From Prionailurus viverrinus (taxonomy: Eukaryota): a stretch of DNA of 64,000 bases. The notes below the pieces were generated by a model that worked only from the letters and a program-made list of their open reading frames with translations, had not been told where the DNA came from and ran no database searches. This document shows, piece by piece, positions 11,546 through 61,901 of this stretch. The stretch lies in contig NC_062566.1 in the NCBI RefSeq assembly GCF_022837055.1, positions 66,798,464 through 66,862,463 on the forward strand. Direction: 5' to 3'. The translations under genes were made by a program, and so were the position numbers. Numbering within the stretch: position 1 is the stretch's first letter; each line of letters begins with the position of its first letter.

Positions 11546-11708
11546 GGGGCACCTGGGTGGCTCAGTTGATTAAGCATCCAAATTTGGCTCAGGTCATGAT
11601 CTCACAGTTCATGGGTTTGAGCCCCACATCGGGCTCTCTGCTGTCAGTGCAGAGCCTGCTTTGGATCCTCGGTCTCCCTCTCTCACTCGCTGCCCCTCCC
11701 TGGCTCGA

Positions 11709-11756
<48 letters not shown>

Positions 11757-11757
11757 A

Positions 11758-11793
<36 letters not shown>

Positions 11794-11821
11794 AGAAAGA
11801 AAGAAAGAAAGAAAAAAGAAA

Positions 11822-11866
<45 letters not shown>

Positions 11867-11870
11867 AACT
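11546..11870 (+). mobile_element. Can-SINE with an expanded (GAAA)n tail. TSD aaactgtttc.
   Basis: The head is GGGGCACCTGGGTGGCTCAGTTGATTAAGCATCC, followed by a (GAAA)n run of about 163 nt. Confidence 0.85.
11706..11869 (+). repeat. Imperfect (GAAA)n tetranucleotide microsatellite of about 40 units
   Basis: The repeat is directly visible. The ORF-track entries at 11557..12012 and 11661..11921 (KKERKKERKK...) are translations of it. Confidence 0.95.
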
Positions 11871-12318
11871 GTTTCCCTTCTGCCAGCTGTTCTCCTGCTC
11901 TACAATGAACAATCTGAATAAACAGCAATGCTTTCCGTCCTTTATCCTGGCTAAGGTGATCACGAACCCCAAAGATGACATCCCTTCAAAGAAGCAAACT
12001 TCCAAATTCTAAAACAGCTAAGCTGCAGATAGTGGGTCATTCTATTTGTATACTTATAATGAACATTTCAGAAAAGGCTTCTAAACTGTCCTCCCATCCT
12101 CTATGTACCCCTCCCACCGCCTCGGTCCCTTCTCCTTTCCCACCAGACACTCCATCAGACAGTGAAGTCAAACTGAGCCAGCTCTTCCTGGAAACAATTT
12201 GGCTCTCTTCTCAAAGTTCGTACTTAACCTTATCCCCGTGAATATCCAGTTATCCTCCCAGGCTAAGACCCAGATGTCACTGTTTTGACTCAGGTGATCA
12301 CTACCCCACTCGTCTTAC

Positions 12319-22949: not shown

Positions 22950-23400
22950 AGTTGAGTGCACGCAGGTCAGCAGCAGAAGGTCCCAACACCCCGCTGCGCC
23001 CCTTCCGTAACAGGGGAGGCTCTCCGCCAGCGGGCGAACCCTCAGGAGTTGTTATAGTAACCTCACTAACACATGCAGCGTCCTGCATGCGCCAAGTAAT
23101 TCGCTGGTAATATATACACTGGACTCCCCCCTTCTTCCCGAGTAACAAAAGCACATATAGATTTTAACCTATGACTCCCACCTGCAATTTCTGCAAGATC
23201 TGCTTGACTTCCTCGTCTTCATCAGCCATCATTTCCCAGCCAGTCTCGGCTTCTCCGCCCCCAACTTTGTAACCACAGAGACTCAGGCCCACCCCCATCG
23301 TGGAGCCAGAGCGACATCTAGGGTACTGGAGGCTTACCTGCACCTGAGTAGAGGAGCTGGTTGGTTTGGGTTTTACATGTATCCAAACATTACTTTTAAT
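22950..23400 (-). promoter_or_regulatory. TTC5: TTC5 CpG island / promoter region spanning exon 1. The transcription start site is not determinable from sequence alone.
   Basis: The region is locally CpG-rich (cgctgcgcc, gccagcgggcg, catgcgcc, tctcggcttctccgccc, agagcgac). The first ATG lies at 23232 (-), and the surrounding SINEs have lost their CpGs. Confidence 0.5.
23182..23232 (-). CDS. TTC5: TTC5 exon 1 coding part: MMADEDEEVKQILQKLQ, followed by a gtggga donor. The 5' UTR extends upstream (to higher coordinates) into a CpG island.
   Basis: The reverse complement of 23182-23232 reads ATGATGGCTGATGAAGACGAGGAAGTCAAGCAGATCTTGCAGAAATTGCAG|gtggga, which matches the human MMADEEEEVKPILQKLQ. 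Confidence 0.8.
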
Positions 23401-23889: not shown

Positions 23890-24317
23890 TATTTTACATA
23901 TTTTTAAACTCGATAGTTCTGACAGAGCTCTCAGAACATAGTTTTTCAGTTAATGGGCAGCAAACTGACTTACTGGTTAAATTAGCAACCATGCAGCTGC
24001 CTGACAACAATTGGATAATTTAGGAGTAACTGGCTTCTGGACATTAATTTTAATTACTTTGAAAAGCCATAATTTAGTACCAAATGTTTAAACACCCACT
24101 ATAATTGCTAAGCTGTGAAGTCAGCTTTATAACAGATCAGCTATACAAAAGTCATCAATTTTCTTCAAAAAAAAAAAAAGCTAGTAGAAATCCCAAAGAA
24201 TAAAGAAAAAATTACTAAAGGTCACATTTACTAATCTAGTACCATAAGTCCAGTCTTAGGCCATCCCAAGTGGCTGCAAGGAGGAATGGCAGAAGTGATG
24301 ATGTTGGAAAAGGGTAC

Positions 24318-24362
24318 TTCGTTTATTTATTTATTTATTTGTTTATTTGTTTATTTATTTAT
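24318..24362 (+). repeat. (TTTA/TTTG)n microsatellite
   Basis: The run reads tttatttatttatttatttgtttatttgtttatttatttatt. Confidence 0.9.
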
Positions 24363-24575
24363 TAGCTTTTAGGGCATGATCTCTCCTCTCCTGAGTTTGA
24401 GCCCTGCACCTGGGTGGCTTAGTAGGTTAAGGGTACGACTTCAGCTTAGGGCATGATCTCACCTCTCCTGAGTTCGAGCCCTGCACAGGGACTCTGCTGA
24501 CATACTGTGTCTCCCTCTCTCTCTGCCCCTCTCCCACTAACGCTCTCTCTGCCTCAAAAGTAAATAAACGTTAAA
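24340..24575 (+). mobile_element. Can-SINE carrying an internal 5' segmental duplication, arranged tail-to-tail with the next element
   Basis: The segment TAGGGCATGATCTC(T/A)CCTCTCCTGAGTT(T/C)GAGCCCTGCAC occurs twice, and the tail is ...GCCTCAAAAGTAAATAAACGTTAAAAAAAAA. Confidence 0.8.
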
Positions 24576-24576
24576 A

Positions 24577-24793
24577 AAAAATTTTAACGTTTATTTACTT
24601 TTGAGGCAGAGAGAGACAGAGCGTGAGTGGGGGAGGGTCAGAGACAGAGGGAGACACAGAATCCAAATCGAGCTCCAGGCTCCGAGCTGTCAACACAGAA
24701 CCCAACGCAGGGCTCAAACCCACAGACCAAGAGATCAAGACCTGAGTCGAAGTCCGGTGCTTAACAGACTGAGCCACCCAGGTGCCCCAGAAA
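24577..24793 (-). mobile_element. Can-SINE (reverse orientation), with its tail abutting the tail of the previous SINE
   Basis: It begins TTTTAACGTTTATTTACTTTTGAGGCAGAGAG, the exact reverse complement of the neighbouring tail, and ends ...CTGAGCCACCCAGGTGCCCC. Confidence 0.85.
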
Positions 24794-25296
24794 AGGGTAC
24801 TTTTTAACCTGTGGGCCCTTTTGTGCTGTAAGGCAACACAGGATCTAGCAGAGAGGAAAATCGATGAGGTGGGAATTTAAAACAAAAGTTTTTGGTTCAG
24901 ATGGTAAGGAGGCCCTCAAGAACAGCAGAAATCAGTATATCCAGGAGGCAGGGCTGGAGTCTACTTCGTGAACTAGAGGGTTTCTTCTTGGTATCCAAGT
25001 CCCTTTTAAATTTCTTCAAGTTTTTTAGCCAGGTTTGATATGTCATAATTCTGAGCCAGATACATTCCAAACACGTTGCCAAAAGTAAATCCAAGCAGGA
25101 TCTGGAGCATGAGGTCTGCAAGGAGGGGGAGGAGGGTGCAAAGGGTGGCTAAGAGCTGGTTTTCAAGGAAGGGCACCATGGCAAACCAACTTAACCCAAT
25201 ACCTGTAGCTCAAGAGAGGCTCTATAAATCACTTTGAGTTCATAAACTTGTTTCTTTCCCAAATCCTGGAAACATACTAGTCTCAATTGCATGTAT

Positions 25297-26233: not shown

Positions 26234-26457
26234 TTTTTTTTAAATTTTTTTTTTTTTCAACGTTTATTTATTTTTGGGACAGAGAGAGACAGAGCATGAA
26301 CGGGGGAGGGGCAGAGAGAGGGAGACACAGAATCGGAAACAGGCTCCAGGCTCTGAGCCGTCAGCCCAGAGCCCGACGCGGGCTCGAACTCCCGGACCGC
26401 GAGATCGTGACCTGGCTGAAGTCGGACGCTTAACCGACTGCGCCACCCAGGCGCCCC
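26234..26457 (-). mobile_element. Young CpG-intact SINEC copy (reverse orientation). Perfect 15-bp TSD aataagaaacttttt at 26219-26233 and 26458-26472.
   Basis: Its reverse complement is nearly identical to the copy at 1586-1802, and about 17 CpGs are retained. Confidence 0.9.
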
Positions 26458-27267
26458 AATAAGAAACTTTTTAAAAGTGACATATAATAGTCCTAATAAA
26501 GGCTCTCTTTACTTTTTAATTATAGTTCATTTGTATTTCAAACTGATCCTGTGGGGTCTGGGGAAGAAAAAAGAAAGAAAAACTGATCTTGTGAACCTAA
26601 CAAAAGAAGCAAAGGTCCAAGGCAGAAATCATGAATATACATAAAATTATTTCCCCAAACCATTTTCCAGCAAAATTTAAAACTGCTTAAGGAAGAAAAA
26701 TACTTTGCAACATAACCTATGAAATCTGTGTTAACAGCTATGAAATGGGGAGAGGGGTTTTAAAAGATTTTACCTTTTTCTCAGACACCATTTTAACTTT
26801 GGAATACAGAAAACAAATTTTTAAGTGAAGTTATATTCTATACTATTAAACGAAGAAAACATTACTTCCTTTCTATCCAATTATATAAAGCAAGGGTATT
26901 TACTTGCCTTTCTACAATTAAATATACAACCTCTTCAAATGCTTTCAGTATGACTTTATTACCCAAATAACAATGGGATTTGACATTTAGGGTAGTCCCA
27001 TTGTATTTCCTCCCAAACCAATAAAAATAAATAAAATTCAAGAGGTAGAGAAGGGTTACAAGATAATTTAATTCAGTCCTTCATTTTACAGATGTAGAAG
27101 CAAATTCCCAGAAAGTTTAAATTCAAACTCACAACCAATAGGAAAAAAACATAATTGGAACCTAGATGTCCTGCCTCTGCAATCAGTATGCTTTCAAGTC
27201 ACGCCCCTAATAGGATGTAAGGTAACTGAAAGTGTCATTCAAATTTCTTTCCTGGCTCCACATTTTT

Positions 27268-28539: not shown

Positions 28540-28742
28540 CTAAATTCTTTTCACTTTAAAGGCCCTGCTAGAGATTTGCTGCTGCTCTACTTCACGACCT
28601 GGGGAGGCAAAACTAAAAAAGCTGTTGCTGGGTTCAGGTGCTGTGGGAGAAGCCACAAAAAATGGTCTGAACTGAAAATCTCCATCTCCACCACCCCGAT
28701 TTTGAACTGGTGTACTGTCCAAAGGAAACTTGGAGTTGTTCC
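28540..28742 (-). CDS. CCNB1IP1: CCNB1IP1 last coding exon: (G)NNSKFPLDSTPVQNRGGGDGDFQFRPFFVASPTAPEPSNSFFSFASPGREVEQQQISSRAFKVKRI*
   Basis: The ORF track has a matching ORF at 28540..28722 (-). The acceptor is tttttttcctag|GGAACAAC. The translation matches the human HEI10 C-terminus. Confidence 0.9.
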
Positions 28743-29073
28743 CTAGGAAAAAAATAAGGGGAAAACTTAAGCATCCATTTGCTTACAGATCTTTAGGTAC
28801 AAAAAGACAAAATTCATTTAATAAATATTTTAACAGAATCAATTCCTATGAGACAGTAAAATATAAACTTAATATTGGATAGAGAAAAGGGTTATGATGG
28901 CTCCTACTCCCTCCCCCAACCACAGTATATACTATACCTTCTGCTGTGATGCACTTTCCAGTAGCTATGAACTCATCACCAAAAGTAATTTTACAGTGAA
29001 ATGTTTTTTAGTATAGCCAGAATTTACAATTCATAATTTCATTCATTATCTATGTAATCTACTTCAAAGGAAT

Positions 29074-30710: not shown

Positions 30711-30996
30711 TCGAAAACTGGCAACTAGTATTACTGCAAGGAAACAGCTTTTCACTTAAAGTATCAATTTGCAAACTATTTTGAAGAGATTTACTGTTTA
30801 CAATGAAGATGTAACTTAACCACAAGCAAATAAAAATAAATAAAAGCAAAGATGTACATGTTTAGACCTGGATAAGGAATCTGGAACCTATCACCACTCT
30901 AGGCCTTTGGAGTCTCCATTGACTTTCTAGAACTGTGCAGAACACAATGTGAAAGATTTAAAGAACAGTTATTGGATATTATATGTCCTTTCTTAC

Positions 30997-31330
30997 CTAA
31001 TGGAAAGCCAAAAACACCAGATTGTGCAATCATGGATGGTTCCAGCATACTTTCTTGGTTAGCAATAGTGATGTTTCGCAGCCTAAGGCTATCATACAGG
31101 CCTTGGAGCTTTTGATACTGACGATTTCGCTCCATAAGTTTCTCAGAGATGTCACTGAACTTTTTCTTATATTCTTCTAGCACTTTCTTCATGGAGGTGA
31201 CTTCCCCCTTCATAGAGGTCAATTCTACATCCTTACTCTGTATTTGCTGAGTGTATATCTTCTCCATCTGTTTCAGATGGCCCTCAGCCTTGCTGAAATT
31301 GTATTCTTGATAGAGACGCTCCTGATGTAC
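30997..31330 (-). CDS. CCNB1IP1: CCNB1IP1 middle coding exon (coiled-coil): VHQERLYQEYNFSKAEGHLKQMEKIYTQQIQSKDVELTSMKGEVTSMKKVLEEYKKKFSDISEKLMERNRQYQKLQGLYDSLRLRNITIANQESMLEPSMIAQSGVFGFPL(G)
   Basis: The ORF track has a matching ORF at 30899..31267 (-). The acceptor is ctcggggcag|GTACATCAG and the donor is CCATTAG|gtaaga. Confidence 0.9.
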
Positions 31331-32187
31331 CTGCCCCGAGAGAAAAAGAGATTTTTAAGGTAATAAGTACAAAGTTATATATCATAAAACTTTACACAAA
31401 AAGATTTACACCAGGACATTACTAATTTAACATTTAGAACCAGATTAAGAAGCAAACAAGATGTACAATTGGATGGTTACTATAGAAAATAATACACCAT
31501 GTCACTAAACACATAAGAAAAAACTCTGGAGGAATATTCTCAAACTGCTACCATTATACCAACAAAAGTATCTATCTAACCCTGAAAAGTGACATGTAGT
31601 CTTAGTATTTTTAAAAAATATGAATGTCATATTTCAAGTAATCCATAGTATGGAGAACAGATAAGACAGTCTCCAATTATCCCTGTCTCCTTGTACTTAG
31701 ATTCTCTCCTACAATGTGGGCAGAAGCTGTGACAAGAATACAGGTAAAATGAAAGGATGCTGCTTGATATTACATAAGACTATAAAGTCGGCCTTAGCAC
31801 ACTCTCTTGCTGGCTTTGTAAAAGCAAGTAGCCATGTTGCAAAGGCCAAGGCAAGTAATTGAGTACAGCCTTTGAGCAACAGCCAGCACAATACTGAGGT
31901 CATAATGAATCTAAACATAAGACTGTACACAACCTTCACAAAAATTAACTCAAAATGGATCACAGAACTAATGTAAACACAAAACTATAAGATTCCTATA
32001 AGGTAACAGAGGAGAAAATCTAAATGATCTTGGGTTTAATGGTGACTTTTTAGATGCAACACAAAAAGGCACAATCTGTGAAAGAACTGATGAGCTAGAT
32101 TTCATTAAAGTTGAAAATTTCTGCTCTGCAAAAGACAATGTCAAGAGAATGAAAAGACAAGCCATAGAATGAGAGAAAATATCTGGG

Positions 32188-37212: not shown

Positions 37213-37560
37213 AATACTGCAATTTGGGGAGCACTTGGCTGGTTCAATCGGTAAAGCATGCAACTTTTTTTTTTTTTTTCAACGTTTATTTATTTTTGGG
37301 ACAGAGAGAGACAGAGCATGAACGGGGGAGGGGCAGAGAGAGAGGGAGACACAGAATCGGAAACAGGCTCCAGGCTCTGAGCCATCAGCCCAGAGCCTGA
37401 CGCGGGGCTCGAACTCACGGACCGCGCGATCGTGACCTGGCTGAAGTCGGACGCTTAACCGACTGCGCCACCCAGGCGCCCCAAAGCATGCAACTCTTGA
37501 TCTCAGGGTTGTGAGTTTAAGCCTCAGGTTGAGCAGAGAGATTACTTAAAAATAAAATCT
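37213..37560 (+). mobile_element. Older short Can-SINE (tRNA-like head of the AGCATGCAACTC type), split by the nested young SINE at 37266-37482
   Basis: The element reads GGGGAGCACTTGGCTGGTTCAATCGGTAAAGCATGCAACT | insert | AAAGCATGCAACTCTTGATCTCAGGGTTGTGAGTTTAAGCC. Confidence 0.8.
37266..37482 (-). mobile_element. Young CpG-intact SINEC copy (reverse orientation) nested in an older SINE. Perfect 13-bp TSD aaagcatgcaact at 37253-37265 and 37483-37495.
   Basis: It is nearly identical to the copy at 26234-26457, and the TSD duplicates host-SINE sequence. Confidence 0.9.
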
Positions 37561-38187: not shown

Positions 38188-38337
38188 AAACATATTACTT
38201 TTGAAAAAAAAAATTATTAAAAAGAAAGTTTTCTATATATTCACAAAAAATAAATACAAACACAGTGAAGGAAAAACATTAGAAGCCTCCACATGCCTCC
38301 AATCATACTGTCCAGAAAAACTAGCCTAAGCACTAAC

Positions 38338-38634
38338 CTGATACGTCCAGAAGGCCAGTGCACGGGAGCTAATGTCCAACACAATCTCTGGTCGAAGTCC
38401 TGCCAATACCATGGCTTTATATTCCTCTGATGGACTGAGTTCTGTGCGGACAATGTCTAGCTTTCCAGAAAGGGTACTGTTGCAGGCAGGGCAGATAGCT
38501 GGTGAACGACTAAACTCACCACTGCCATGCTGATCACAGAAGATGTGAGAGCAGGCAGTGACCCACGCATAACCAGAGAGTTTGAGACGACACTTGCGAT
38601 AATTACAAAGCAGCATGTCTTCACACAAAGACAT
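38338..38634 (-). CDS. CCNB1IP1: CCNB1IP1 first coding exon (RING domain). ATG at 38634: MSLCEDMLLCNYRKCRLKLSGYAWVTACSHIFCDQHGSGEFSRSPAICPACNSTLSGKLDIVRTELSPSEEYKAMVLAGLRPEIVLDISSRALAFWTYQ. The exon itself begins at an acceptor near 38658 (ttcttttcag|CATCTGGAG) and carries about 24 nt of 5' UTR.
   Basis: The ORF track has a matching ORF at 38326..38634 (-). The donor is TATCAG|gttagt. Across the three exons, 297+334+203 nt gives 834 nt and 277 aa, which equals the length of human CCNB1IP1. Confidence 0.9.
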
Positions 38635-42987: not shown

Positions 42988-43216
42988 GGGGCGCCTGGGT
43001 GGCGCAGTCGGTTAAGCGTCCGACTTCAGCCAGGTCACGATCTCGCGGTCCGTGAGTTCGAGCCCCACGTCGGGCTCTGGGCTGATGGCTCAGAGCCTGG
43101 AGCCTGTTTCTGATTCTGTGTCTCCCTCTCTCTGTGCCCCTCCCCCGTTCATGCTCTGTCTCTCTCTGTCCCAAAAATAAAATAAAACGTTGAAAAAAAA
43201 AATTAAAAAAAAAAAA
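42988..43216 (+). mobile_element. Young CpG-intact SINEC copy. Perfect 15-bp TSD aagttttgcttttca at 42973-42987 and 43217-43231.
   Basis: It is nearly identical to the copy at 1586-1802. Confidence 0.9.
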
Positions 43217-45322: not shown

Positions 45323-46242
45323 AAATACATTTTTAATACTAACCTAAAATGTGTAAGCAACCACTCGGTAGAAAATTGATCAGTAGAAACTCATCAGTAC
45401 AAAATGATTACACAACTTAAAATGTAAACATGAATGACTTCAGAGTTATTGTTTCAGAAACTCTCAATTTACTAAACCACTTTCTTTCATAGCCCTAGGT
45501 CAGTGCTATTCAAATACTATTGCAGTCAAAGGATTGTCAATAAACTTATACATCCTTATATTTTAATGTTAGTTTTGTTTTATTTTTTCAATCACAGGTA
45601 CATTGTCTTAACCTAGAATCACCATCTGCTTTGTAATTGTTTGACTCCGCAAAAATCAGAAGACACTAACGGACGGCCAACCCATCCCCATGGTGCCCTG
45701 AGTGAAAACAAGTCAGCTTGGATATATGATGGACTAAAATCTCACTACCTAAGCTCTAAGCAGTGAGAGGAACAGCCATCAAAATTTATCTCCAACCATT
45801 TTAATAAATGTTTTAAGAATGTTTTAATGTTTAAGAATGTTTTAAGAAATATTTTAAGAAACATTTATAAAAATAAAGATACTAAGTCATTCTTTTTTTT
45901 TCAAGTCAGTCTTAATAGGAATCAATCACTACATCTAAATTTTTAAAAAGTCAATTAAGAGCTAAATGAACCATCAAGTATCATCTGCTCCAGCTAAAAG
46001 ACAAAATGAGGAATAGGATGATAAATAACTCAGTGCCAAAACAAGATCAATCAACTAAAGAAATGTTATTGGAACAGTCACATAGAGATACACACTAGTC
46101 CTGATTATCATACTTATTACCATAATTCTAGAACTTTAAATTAGGTTTTATGTGCTGGAGATAAAGATGTCAGAAACCAGCAGGTAGAATAGTTTAAGAT
46201 AAATATGCACATGGACTTTGATGATAAAACAGCTAATATCTA

Positions 46243-46445: not shown

Positions 46446-48568
46446 AAACAGGTAATATCTATTGAACAATCACTATATGCTTAAGCAGTGTTCTAAGCCC
46501 ACAAATTTATTATCTAATCTTCAAAGTGACGTACTATTCTTTTGAATCTGGCACTATTATTCTCATAAGATATTAAGACACTGAGATGTTAAGAAACTTG
46601 CCAAGGTTACATAGCTGTTAAGTGACAAAGGATTGGTTTGAACTCAGTTTCACTCCAGAATCTATGCATAATATACTATGCTACCTCAACATCTTTGACC
46701 TTTTAAAAAATTAAATCTGTAGCAACTTAGCAGCTGGCCACGAATCCACAAAGTTGAATTTTCAAAGATTCATATGTATGTCAAAGCTTCTCAGCTTCAA
46801 CATAAGCCTTACCACAAAAGAAAAATGTTGTCATCATCTGTTGTATATCCAGGACTTACAACACCCAAGGATTCCAAGCTGGGAAAGAAGTCAGACTCAG
46901 ATCTAGTTTTGGTCTCCTGAAACGTCATTGCTGCAAAAAGACATAGCCAAAAAAGACATAGTACTTTGGATTATTTGCATTTCCTGTATTTCTCCCTCAG
47001 ATGTACGCCATTCTCTGCTGAAGCATGCAGGCACAGATAAAAAGAATAGAAGCCTGTTCTGTGTAGGTTCAATTAATACAATACATGAATATAATAAAGT
47101 CAGAAAACACAGGGTAACAGGATCACCCTTAGAATCCAATTCTAGAAACAATAATCCCTAGTATTGAGTATATCCTTTCATAAAATTTCTGAAGTAAACA
47201 TAAGTATATGAAAATATTTAAGCATAAAAGGGATTAGGCACACTGCTCTATAATTTGTTTTTAACTCAATGTATCTTGAATATCCTTCCATTTCAAAAAA
47301 GGTAAACCTGTATCAGAACTTTTAAGTGACTACATAGTGTTGCATTTTATGATCCTGACAAAATTGACTGAACCAACTCTGAAATCCTTTTAATCTTATA
47401 TATAAATTAATAAAATAGTGATTAGTTAAAAACCGCAAAGTAAAGTGGGTGATAGAATTATACCAGTTATCAGTGCTTTTTCTGTAGTGTTTGAATGTTT
47501 ACACTGAGGAAGATTCTTGACCCTGGTTCTATCTATGTCAAGAAGATATCACAAAAGGTCAAAGCACACAACAAAGTGTTGTAGTATCAGATCTGTAATT
47601 CAAAGATTTAAGATTTACCTGGGACTGGGGGGCTAGATCCCAGTAAGAATTCCAAGAAGCAGAATTCAACTCCAGGGTTTTGCCCTAGCTTTAGTCTGCT
47701 CAGAGCATGTGTTTAATCAGGGTGATCAGCTGAAACACGGACTTAACATGCATTTCATCATGGCAAACTATAGGTGACTGATGAAGGGCAAACCACCACA
47801 GGCTCCCCGTCTCTAAACTAGGAGGACACTCTTAAGGTTAGAACTAAGGCTTTTTCAAACTACCAAATTCCAGCCACTAAGGACACTGAGCCCCAAAACT
47901 TACTAGATGATTAGAAATCCAAATCAAGTAAAAAGACTTTTCTTTTACATTTACCTCTGATATCAAATCCATCCGCTTCTATCTAGAAATTAGTTGAACC
48001 ACACGATCTACCAACTACCTGCATATCATCTTTCCAAATGCATCATCTCTGAAAAATAAAGAGTAAATAATAAAGGTTATGATTACAGGACTTGAATGCA
48101 TACCAGCCTACTCCCAAGCCACATCTCTATAGCCTCAAGGAAAATTAACCTCAAGGAAAACCATTCTTTGTATCAATCGCCAACCAGTAATATAAATTGA
48201 CCCATCTATTTGGAGAATGAATGGCATGAAGTGCCCAAATGCCCAAACTCAGTATCACATTAGGACAGGACTTCTTACACAAGCTCAGATTCTTGTATAA
48301 ATTTAAAAGTTTGGGTAAAACTGTACAATAAGTTTAACCAAACTCCAAAAGTTACATGTCCAGAGTCTCACAATAAGAGAACAGTATGGAAAAGGAAGGA
48401 GCCATGTGCTGGCTGCAACCAGAGCTTTGCAGTTATGGGAACAAATTCAGTGAGATGGGGCATAAATGACATGGGTTACTGCCAACCTTTCCAAGTCCAT
48501 AGGGTGTTCAACTACAGAAAATACTTGTAACCAGTCATTAGATTCACAAAATCCTTTAAAAAAAAAAA

Positions 48569-48628: not shown

Positions 48629-48847
48629 GGGGCGCCTGGGTGGCGCAGTCGGTTAAGCGTCCGACTTCAGCCAGGTCACGATCTCGCGGTCTGTGAGTTC
48701 GAGCCCTGCGTCAGGCTCTGGGCTGATGGCTCGGAGCCTGGAGCCTGTTTCCGATTCTGTGTCTCCCTCTCTCTCTGCCCCTCCCCCGTTCATGCTCTGT
48801 CTCTCTCTGTCCCAAAAATAAATAAAAACGTTGGAAAAAAATAAATA
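48629..48847 (+). mobile_element. Young CpG-intact SINEC copy. TSD aataaggaaa.
   Basis: It is nearly identical to the copy at 1586-1802 (with ...GCGGTCTGTGAGTTCGAGCCCTGCGTCAGG...). Confidence 0.9.
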
Positions 48848-61558: not shown

Positions 61559-61901
61559 GCAGGACGGGGGAGAGTAGTCTGAATTGGGTTATGAAGCCCC
61601 CCCGTTGGGGGGTACCTCACCTCAGCCATTGAACTCACTTCGCTGGCCGTGAGTCTTTTCCAAGCTCCGGCTAAGGAGGCATCCGCCAGGCCCCTCCTCG
61701 AGGGCGGGGTCCATGGCATCTCCTGCCCAGTCTGCCCTCGCGCGGAGCCCCGTTCTCTGGGAACTCACCTCCCCGAAACTCAGGGAGGACCCTGTTAGGG
61801 CCGCTTTTGGCCCTAGTCTCAGACCTTCCCAGGGGACATGGGGTAGAGTGACTTAAGGCACTCAGCGCGTAGCCCCACCGATGAGCTTCCCTCCGCCCTA
61901 T
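61559..61901 (-). ncRNA. RPPH1: RPPH1, the RNase P RNA component H1 (about 343 nt, Pol III transcript)
   Basis: The reverse complement begins ATAGGGCGGAGGGAAGCTCATCGGTGGGGCTACGCGCTGAGTG and ends ...GGTACCCCCCAACGGGGGGGCTTCATAACCCAATTCAGACTACTCTCCCCCGTCCTGC followed by TTTT. This is closely similar to the human H1 RNA. Confidence 0.9.

Follow-up and report, generated by a model that had tools for sequence, protein, structure and literature searches.

Can SINEs are tRNA-derived elements of carnivores, and those of the feliform type belong to the T+ class, recognizable by AATAAA signals, a polypyrimidine tract and a tail containing a Pol III terminator (PMC9599045). Human Alu pairs in inverted orientation are strongly depleted at distances of 24 bp or less, with an inverted-to-direct ratio of 0.076 (PMC3215922), and such pairs stall replication when their arms are similar, according to Lobachev et al. 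(2000) and Stenger et al. (2001) as summarized in PMC3215922 and PMC7999016. The risk posed by an inverted repeat grows with the length of its arms and with their similarity (PMC7999016). Template switching between non-identical inverted repeats leads to homogenization of the arms and to inversion of the spacer (PMC8604942), the stems being fixed and the loops inverted with the loop length maintained (PMC8794818). Short gene conversion between neighbouring SINEs is documented for Alu, as far as the account in PMC8230782 goes.

The locus described here lies in a 64-kb window, i.e., the whole stretch of Prionailurus viverrinus DNA that was analysed, and consists of two Can-type SINEs, A and B, joined tail to tail. 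As the earlier note on this DNA stated, the site is intergenic between TTC5 and CCNB1IP1, whose exons flank it, and it lies about 1.1–1.5 kb upstream of the TTC5 ATG. The components of the locus and the neighbouring genes are as follows.

23182–23232, minus strand: TTC5 start-codon exon
24307–24322, no strand: left target-site duplication of B, 16 nt, window form GAAAAGGGTACTTCGT, ancestral form GAAAAGGGTACTTCTT
24323–24369, minus strand: remnant of the poly(A) tail of B, on the plus strand a (TTTA/TTTG)n microsatellite and then AGCTTT
24369–24409, plus strand: X, a 41-nt duplicate of A positions 24446–24486, 95% identical, preceding the head of A
24406–24581, plus strand: SINE A, Can-type, felid-specific, inserted inversely into the poly(A) tail of B, with a terminal A9 run
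24543–24576, plus strand: left arm of the palindrome core (3' end of A), reading CTCTCTCTGCCTCAAAAGTAAATAAACGTTAAAA, with the variants G193 and C185
24577–24581, no strand: asymmetric spacer AAAAA, the A-run plus T-run being A9T4 in the window
24582–24615, minus strand: right arm of the palindrome core (3' end of B, reverse complement), 0 of 34 columns variable among eight felids
24582–24789, minus strand: SINE B, full-length Can-type, its head adjoining the right target-site duplication
24790–24805, no strand: right target-site duplication, window form GAAAAGGGTACTTTTT, in all other species GAAAAGGGTACTTCTT and then AAC
28543–28797 (last coding exon), 30989–31345 and 38335–38634, minus strand: CCNB1IP1 exons
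45635–45781, minus strand: SNORA79, at the Rfam gathering threshold
47693–47769, minus strand: SNORD126, at the Rfam gathering threshold
61563–61897, minus strand: nuclear RNase P RNA, at the Rfam gathering threshold

The TTC5 exons were located with human query sequences, and the felid TTC5 proteins confirm the identity of the gene. The RNase P RNA, SNORA79 and SNORD126 are expected to adjoin CCNB1IP1 or to lie within it. An apparent processed pseudogene of STMP1 (C7orf73), coding for a small mitochondrial protein, occupies 24969–25104 on the minus strand, inside the open reading frames at 24897–25179; it has an in-frame stop and a frameshift before ...KRDLDTKKKPSSS, and it may be old, since its flanks align to hyena, meerkat and bear. 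A long purine-rich (GAAA/GGAA)n microsatellite at 11557–12012 gives rise to artificial open reading frames on both strands (ERKKERKK..., FFLSFFLS...). Exact look-ups of the two open reading frames adjoining the palindrome gave no match.

A and B belong to a family with 43–48 related copies in the window (blastn), matching at 70–83% for full-length B and 65–87% for A. Both elements align to the family consensus, and in both arms CTCCCTCTCTCTCTGCCCCTC... is followed by AAAAGTAAATAAACGTT and an A-run, the architecture of T+ elements. Among about 35 copies of the window the consensus tail is ...CAAAAATAAATAAAC(G/A)TTAAAA; in its longer form, ...CTCAAAAATAAATAAAC(G/A)TTAAAA, it is often followed by an A-run and a T-run terminator, and 8 of the 35 copies end in A(n)T(8-9)AA. 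As elements, A and B are in no way unusual. The window also contains five SINE copies 95–100% identical to one another (1588–1793, 26255–26458, 37277–37483, 42988–43195 and 48629–48826), with tails AAATAAATAAACGTTGAAAAAAAA..., which represent a young subfamily with recent activity; A and B, both old copies, stand apart from it. The segment 50314–50372 on the plus strand, which matches the Rfam tRNA model just at the threshold (29.2 bits), is the tRNA-derived head of a SINE and no tRNA gene.

The two elements abut directly, the plus-strand copy ending at 24581 and the minus-strand one starting at 24582, as the earlier note had it, and the centre is indeed perfectly palindromic, comprising two perfect arms of 34 nt (24543–24576 and 24582–24615) with a 5-nt spacer, AAAAA. 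This central pattern occurs once in the window and in none of 100 shuffles. Folded as single-stranded DNA, the 427-nt region has a predicted energy of -133 kcal/mol (z = -16.7), and the 73-nt core alone reaches -37.3 kcal/mol. The description of the whole as a palindrome with arms of about 200 bp was, however, overstated, as only 34 nt are perfect, the heads (the 5' 100 nt of the arms) are 67% identical and the arms are interrupted by a 26-nt gap. The heads thus stay below the 80% identity outside the tail that the same note had set as the limit for its own claim, and also below the 77% mean for random SINE pairs in the window. Globally, the arms are identical in 86% of the aligned columns, or in 70% when gaps are counted, while the 3' 75 nt or so are 92–95% identical, and an excess of 3' over 5' identity as large as this is found in only 2 of 626 other SINE pairs in the window. 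The CpG states of A and B are concordant in the core and discordant in the heads. The gap corresponds to a private internal deletion of 26 nt in A, at about 24500/24501, present in 0 of 34 other copies. The internal 5' duplication reported for the plus-strand copy is real and corresponds to X. The start of the SINE pair had been placed at 24340, a position that falls inside the (TTTA)n tract, i.e., in the remnant of the poly(A) tail of B and outside the plus-strand copy. The (TTTA/TTTG)n tract at 24323–24363 is the displaced rest of this tail, B having been split by the insertion of A. A 13-nt exact repeat, GAAAAGGGTACTT, found in the window only at 24307 and 24790, brackets both SINEs, which suggested one insertion site holding both.

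The order of events can be read from the orthologous loci, which were obtained with their upstream flanks by a TTC5 protein search and subsequent exact look-ups of felid and other carnivore proteins. An exact look-up with Lynx canadensis TTC5 gave no match, and a CCNB1IP1 protein search with its cluster listing yielded no carnivores. Metagenome scans gave no match for the target site and, for generic tail-to-tail SINE centres, only three unrelated AT-rich bacterial hairpins. The felids comprise, besides the window species, Lynx pardinus, Acinonyx, Leopardus geoffroyi, Panthera pardus, Neofelis nebulosa, GCA_016509475.2 and GCA_023721935.1; we take the last two to be the leopard cat and the snow leopard, respectively, and GCA_023721935.1 has three indels in common with Panthera and Neofelis. 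The distances between the same flanking anchors fall into three classes.

Brown bear: 13 nt, empty site
Meerkat and hyena: 239–243 nt, B only
Eight felids: 448–497 nt (496 nt in the window), B and A

Base-level alignment reveals an empty site in the mink as well. In both bear and mink there is a single ...GTTGGAA(G/A)..TAGTTCTT abutting AAT..., the empty target, from which it follows that the true target-site duplication is 16 nt long and reads GAAAAGGGTACTTCTT. The CG that follows the left duplication in the window is a mutated base of the duplication and not SINE sequence. The nick site is TCTT/AA on the plus strand, fitting an L1-type insertion in minus orientation, and with a duplication at its ends and an empty orthologous site B has both marks of retrotransposition. 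In hyena and meerkat, B is present with both copies of the duplication and with an uninterrupted T-run, i.e., the poly(A) tail, extending from the left copy to AATGTTTA; in base-level alignment neither A nor X nor (TTTA)n is found at this locus. In 8 of 8 felids A is nested in the tail of B, 4 nt past the ...AAACGTT of B, and its ancestral head, GGGGCGCCTGGGTGG, is intact in four of them. Any target-site duplication of A itself has become unrecognizable, having been lost in the homopolymer tail of B. Hence B came first and A second, by two independent insertions. The earlier note had named such a comparison of carnivore loci as a check and had argued against two independent insertions; it is that argument which the empty site in bear and mink, B alone in hyena and meerkat and both elements in all eight felids contradict. 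As the hyena and the meerkat are one clade, the lack of A there could formally be due to one precise loss, but the intact poly(A) tail of B in both argues against it. Going by published phylogenies, the insertion of B presumably falls on the feliform stem and that of A on the cat stem, earlier than the crown radiation some 11–14 million years ago.

Two further differences at this locus concern its edge and the head of B. At 24802–24803 the window species alone has TACTTTTTAAC, all other carnivores having TACTTCTTAAC, and owing to this C-to-T change the right duplication resembles a canonical TTTTT/AA site. The three pantherine-type assemblies have a 4-nt insertion in the head of B (GGTGCCCCACCCAG), aligned at about 24785, and a 2-nt deletion (GACAC--AATCC), both being clade markers.

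The tail common to both arms had been regarded as an unusual variant, GTAAATAAACGTT. As a whole it is the consensus tail of the family, and only two of its bases are rare, namely G193, an A-to-G change, and close to it C185, a T-to-C change; each occurs in 2 of 34 other copies, none of which has both. The string joining the two variants reads TGCCTCAAAAGTAAATAAACG, as against AAAAATAAAT in a consensus-type tail, and TGCCTCAAAAGTAAATAAAC occurs only in these two arms when the window and eleven other loci are searched. B of hyena and meerkat already has the CAAAAGTAA(A/G)TAAAC variant; G193 (AAAAGTAAAT) is present in both, so this private variant of B predates A, and A carries it too. At C185, B of hyena and meerkat has a deletion of 4–8 nt, and the polarity is readable for G193 only.

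We infer from these variants that a short exchange took place between the arms, covering about 35 nt next to the centre. The exchanged tract would have been short, since just outside the core the arms of the parsimony-reconstructed felid ancestor are only about 83% identical, an ordinary value, and an equally old private variant of B, at consensus position 155, is absent from A. The core is common to all felids, which places the exchange before the cat radiation; the pre-exchange form of A occurs in no species sampled. Exchange shows no sign of going on in living felids, in which no change in one arm has its mirror image in the other. The local gene conversion or hairpin-mediated repair proposed in place of separate insertions is thereby retained for the core, on account of G193 and the unique combination, and given up for everything beyond it.

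The locus has the form of a quasi-palindrome, an imperfect inverted repeat with a short spacer, its ancestral centre being A8T4 between ...AAACGTT and AACGTTT.... Template switching is the most likely mechanism for the core, and short gene conversion between neighbouring SINEs appears equally compatible with these data. Since the tract is short, central and between inverted copies, intramolecular template switching fits better than interlocus recombination.

Taken together, the data give a history in four steps, which we hold with good confidence; the first, second and fourth are shown by the data, and the third is a probable one. First, L1-type target-primed reverse transcription placed B at TCTT/AA in minus orientation, generating the 16-nt duplication; this was after the split of feliforms and caniforms but still in the common ancestry of cats, hyenas and mongooses. 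Second, on the cat stem, an unrelated Can-type SINE, A, entered the poly(A) of B in plus orientation, 4 nt past ...AAACGTT, so that the two tails came to form a quasi-palindrome centred on A(n)T4. Third, before the radiation, about 35 nt would have been copied between the arms, from B to A in the case of the G variant, most likely by DNA-polymerase template switching or by an equivalent short gene conversion or hairpin-heteroduplex correction, and this would have produced the perfect 34-nt arms. Fourth, small lineage-specific events followed, i.e., the duplication X, inversion of the spacer in the leopard, a central duplication of about 11 nt in the Iberian lynx and changes in run length.

Two readings that dispense with the third step are unlikely, and about equally so. 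According to one of them, two independent insertions suffice, the source of A having already had the tail variants of B, and the identity of the core is a matter of inheritance plus chance. The family tail is in fact highly stereotyped, the last 34 nt are identical in 5 of 626 pairs in the window, and 4 of the 6 departures from the window consensus shared by A and B are common polymorphisms or CpG states. All five pairs with identical tails are, however, young and at least 95% identical in the 5' region too, whereas the head and the outer 3' region of A do not come from a B-like source; moreover, the rarity of G193 and C185 and the absence of their combination from the rest of the window and the eleven loci speak against chance. 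The other reading has the identity of the core made during the integration of A. Synthesis primed from the nicked tail of B would have snapped back, or jumped, to the 3' end of B as template before continuing on the A RNA, or else the terminal U-run of a Pol III transcript would have paired with the AAAA in the tail of B. In favour of it are the position of A exactly 4 nt into the poly(A) of B and the T4 of the plus strand, complementary to the AAAA of B and at the same time located where the family has its T-run terminator, as seen in the 8 of 35 copies with A(n)T(8-9)AA tails; also in its favour, the 26-nt deletion of A is as old as A in all felids, and the strand to be nicked for A is a purine run, apparently not a canonical L1 endonuclease site. 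In the outgroups, nevertheless, the tail of B consists of A residues only and cannot fold back on itself, and the outer 3' region of A shows private differences of its own as close as about 40 nt to the centre. Improbable to a somewhat higher degree is a related proposal for the tail-to-tail arrangement, non-canonical priming, in which the Pol III transcript of A, ending in the U-run of the A(n)T(n) terminator tail of the family, would have been reverse-transcribed from a nick in the resident poly(A) through U:A pairing. If true, it would predict systematic A(n)T4-centred SINE palindromes in carnivore genomes, perfected afterwards by template switching, and would bear on the integration of terminator-bearing (T+) SINEs.

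It is very improbable that the structure arose from a single SINE by fold-back, i.e., inverted duplication through hairpin-primed repair. The perfect palindromic centre with its short loop and the shared rare variants are what such an origin would give, but the divergence of the arms is not uniform, being 67% identity in the heads (less than in random pairs), about 83% in the ancestral outer 3' arms and 100% in the core; in addition, A differs in internal structure and has a whole head of its own, and in the outgroups B ends in an intact poly(A) tail and lacks any partial arm. Palindromes are known to cause artefacts in libraries and assemblies, yet a chimeric fold-back read or mis-join can be discounted almost entirely here, given that eight independent felid assemblies besides the window have the structure with lineage-consistent differences and that the diverged arms are bounded by a target-site duplication whose site is empty in caniforms.

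Several other candidates were considered and rejected. A copied tract of about 81 nt, ending at the 26-nt deletion of A, disagrees with the identity of about 83% in the outer arms and with the lack of the position 155 variant in A. Neither CGTTTATTTA nor the 17-nt repeat D2 is the target-site duplication of A, as the CG is the mutated base of the B duplication and the rest is microsatellite. One complex event for both the 41-nt duplication and the core fails, because the duplication is younger and clade-restricted. B did not have a T9 terminator of its own, its tail in the outgroups being plain poly(A), and read-through or 3' transduction of a composite transcript is contradicted by the loci that have B but no A. 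A younger third-party donor for the core was dropped, since the excess of 3' over 5' match to the consensus is not unusual (5–6 of 34 copies equal it). Ongoing concerted evolution of the arms was likewise dropped, there being no mirrored change and no significantly low variability of the core.

The later history of the locus in felids consists of small changes. X is present in the window species, GCA_016509475.2, Acinonyx and Lynx and absent from Leopardus, Panthera pardus, Neofelis and GCA_023721935.1, in which the head AGCTTTGGGGCGCCTGGG is intact. Its junctions bear the microhomologies AGCTT and GC(A/G)C, which fits a single microhomology-mediated duplication; given the phylogeny of the cats, X presumably arose after the ocelot lineage had branched off. 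The repeat number of the microsatellite in the remnant of the tail of B differs among felids. The central run is A8T4 in Acinonyx, Neofelis and GCA_023721935.1, A10T4 in GCA_016509475.2 and A7T5 in Leopardus. In Panthera pardus it is A4T8, as against A8T4 in Neofelis, GCA_023721935.1 and Acinonyx, with a total of 12 in each, so that the leopard displays an inversion of the spacer with its length maintained. Two slippages of equal size could in principle have given A4T8, which is less parsimonious than inversion. Lynx pardinus has a tandem duplication of about 11 nt in the spacer and a C-to-A change in the arm of A, which leave it perfect arms of 7 nt.

The earlier note had pointed to long, closely spaced inverted repeats as hotspots for deletion. 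Loss or truncation of the structure is seen in 0 of 8 felids, only small central changes having occurred, and perfect arms of 31–35 nt are kept in 7 of the 8, so the locus is not a demonstrable deletion hotspot. Among the eight felids 3 of 68 columns of the core are variable, compared with 21 of 276 in the heads and flanks (P = 0.23), i.e., the variability indicates neither a hotspot nor significant constraint. Fragile palindromes combine arms of hundreds of bp and high identity with a very short spacer; this locus has the latter (5 nt here, 2–6 nt in six other felids) and not the former, only 34 nt being perfect, and its persistence is probably explained by the divergence of the arms outside this core. 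In about 200 kb of non-redundant carnivore DNA with 142 SINE copies, the closely spaced pairs comprise seven tandem, two tail-to-tail and no head-to-head ones. The only other closely spaced tail-to-tail pair in that DNA lies at positions 2–329 of the mink locus and has a 55-nt spacer.

Though well resolved, the structure is an ordinary case of known processes. The element gives no indication of a cellular function and is best described as passively inherited, moderately hairpin-prone junk DNA. Its value lies in being a clean and datable example of how a SINE inserted into the tail of another SINE creates a quasi-palindrome that is then partly perfected and whose spacer is occasionally flipped, the perfecting and the flip both counting as marks of template switching during replication. 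A second point is that a spacer of only 5 nt does not keep a SINE pair from persisting throughout the cat family once its arms have diverged, and the view of such pairs as hotspots for deletion is moderated accordingly.

Compared with the described systems, both arms conform to Can SINEs in the GGGGCGCCTGGGTGGCTCAG head, the CT-rich tract, the AAATAAATAAAC(G/A)TT tail and the A-rich end. B conforms also in its target-site duplication, with the empty site restricted to non-feliforms, while A departs from the type in its private 26-nt deletion and, in part of Felinae, in the 41-nt 5' duplication. With the PATRR palindromes (PMC7999016) the locus shares an AT-rich centre predicted to form a hairpin (-37 kcal/mol for the core); PATRRs, however, are several hundred bp long, near-perfect, more than 90% AT and subject to recurrent translocations, whereas here the perfect stem is only 34 bp and rearrangements are absent. 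The inverted Alu pairs of Lobachev et al. (2000) and Stenger et al. (2001), as presented in PMC3215922 and PMC7999016, resemble A and B in the tail-to-tail arrangement and the spacer of a few bases; the experimental Alu arms, in the same accounts, were near-identical, unlike those of A and B, which are diverged beyond the 34-nt core and have been kept as a pair in eight felids. The Alu gene conversion of Aleshin and Zhi (2010), as cited in PMC8230782, is similar in being an exchange after insertion that leaves shared non-diagnostic variants, and differs, as far as that citation describes it, from the tract inferred here, which is short, located at the centre of symmetry and situated between inverted copies. 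The closest likeness is to the template-switch mutation of quasi-palindromes (PMC8604942, PMC8794818, PMC7954356): a contiguous stretch by the loop appears to have been perfected, the donor state of G193 is ancestral, and in one lineage the spacer is inverted with its length kept (A8T4 to A4T8). The stretch of about 35 nt, if copied in the event we envisage, would be at the long end of the usual descriptions, and the repeat itself was made by the insertion of a transposon and not from a native short inverted repeat.
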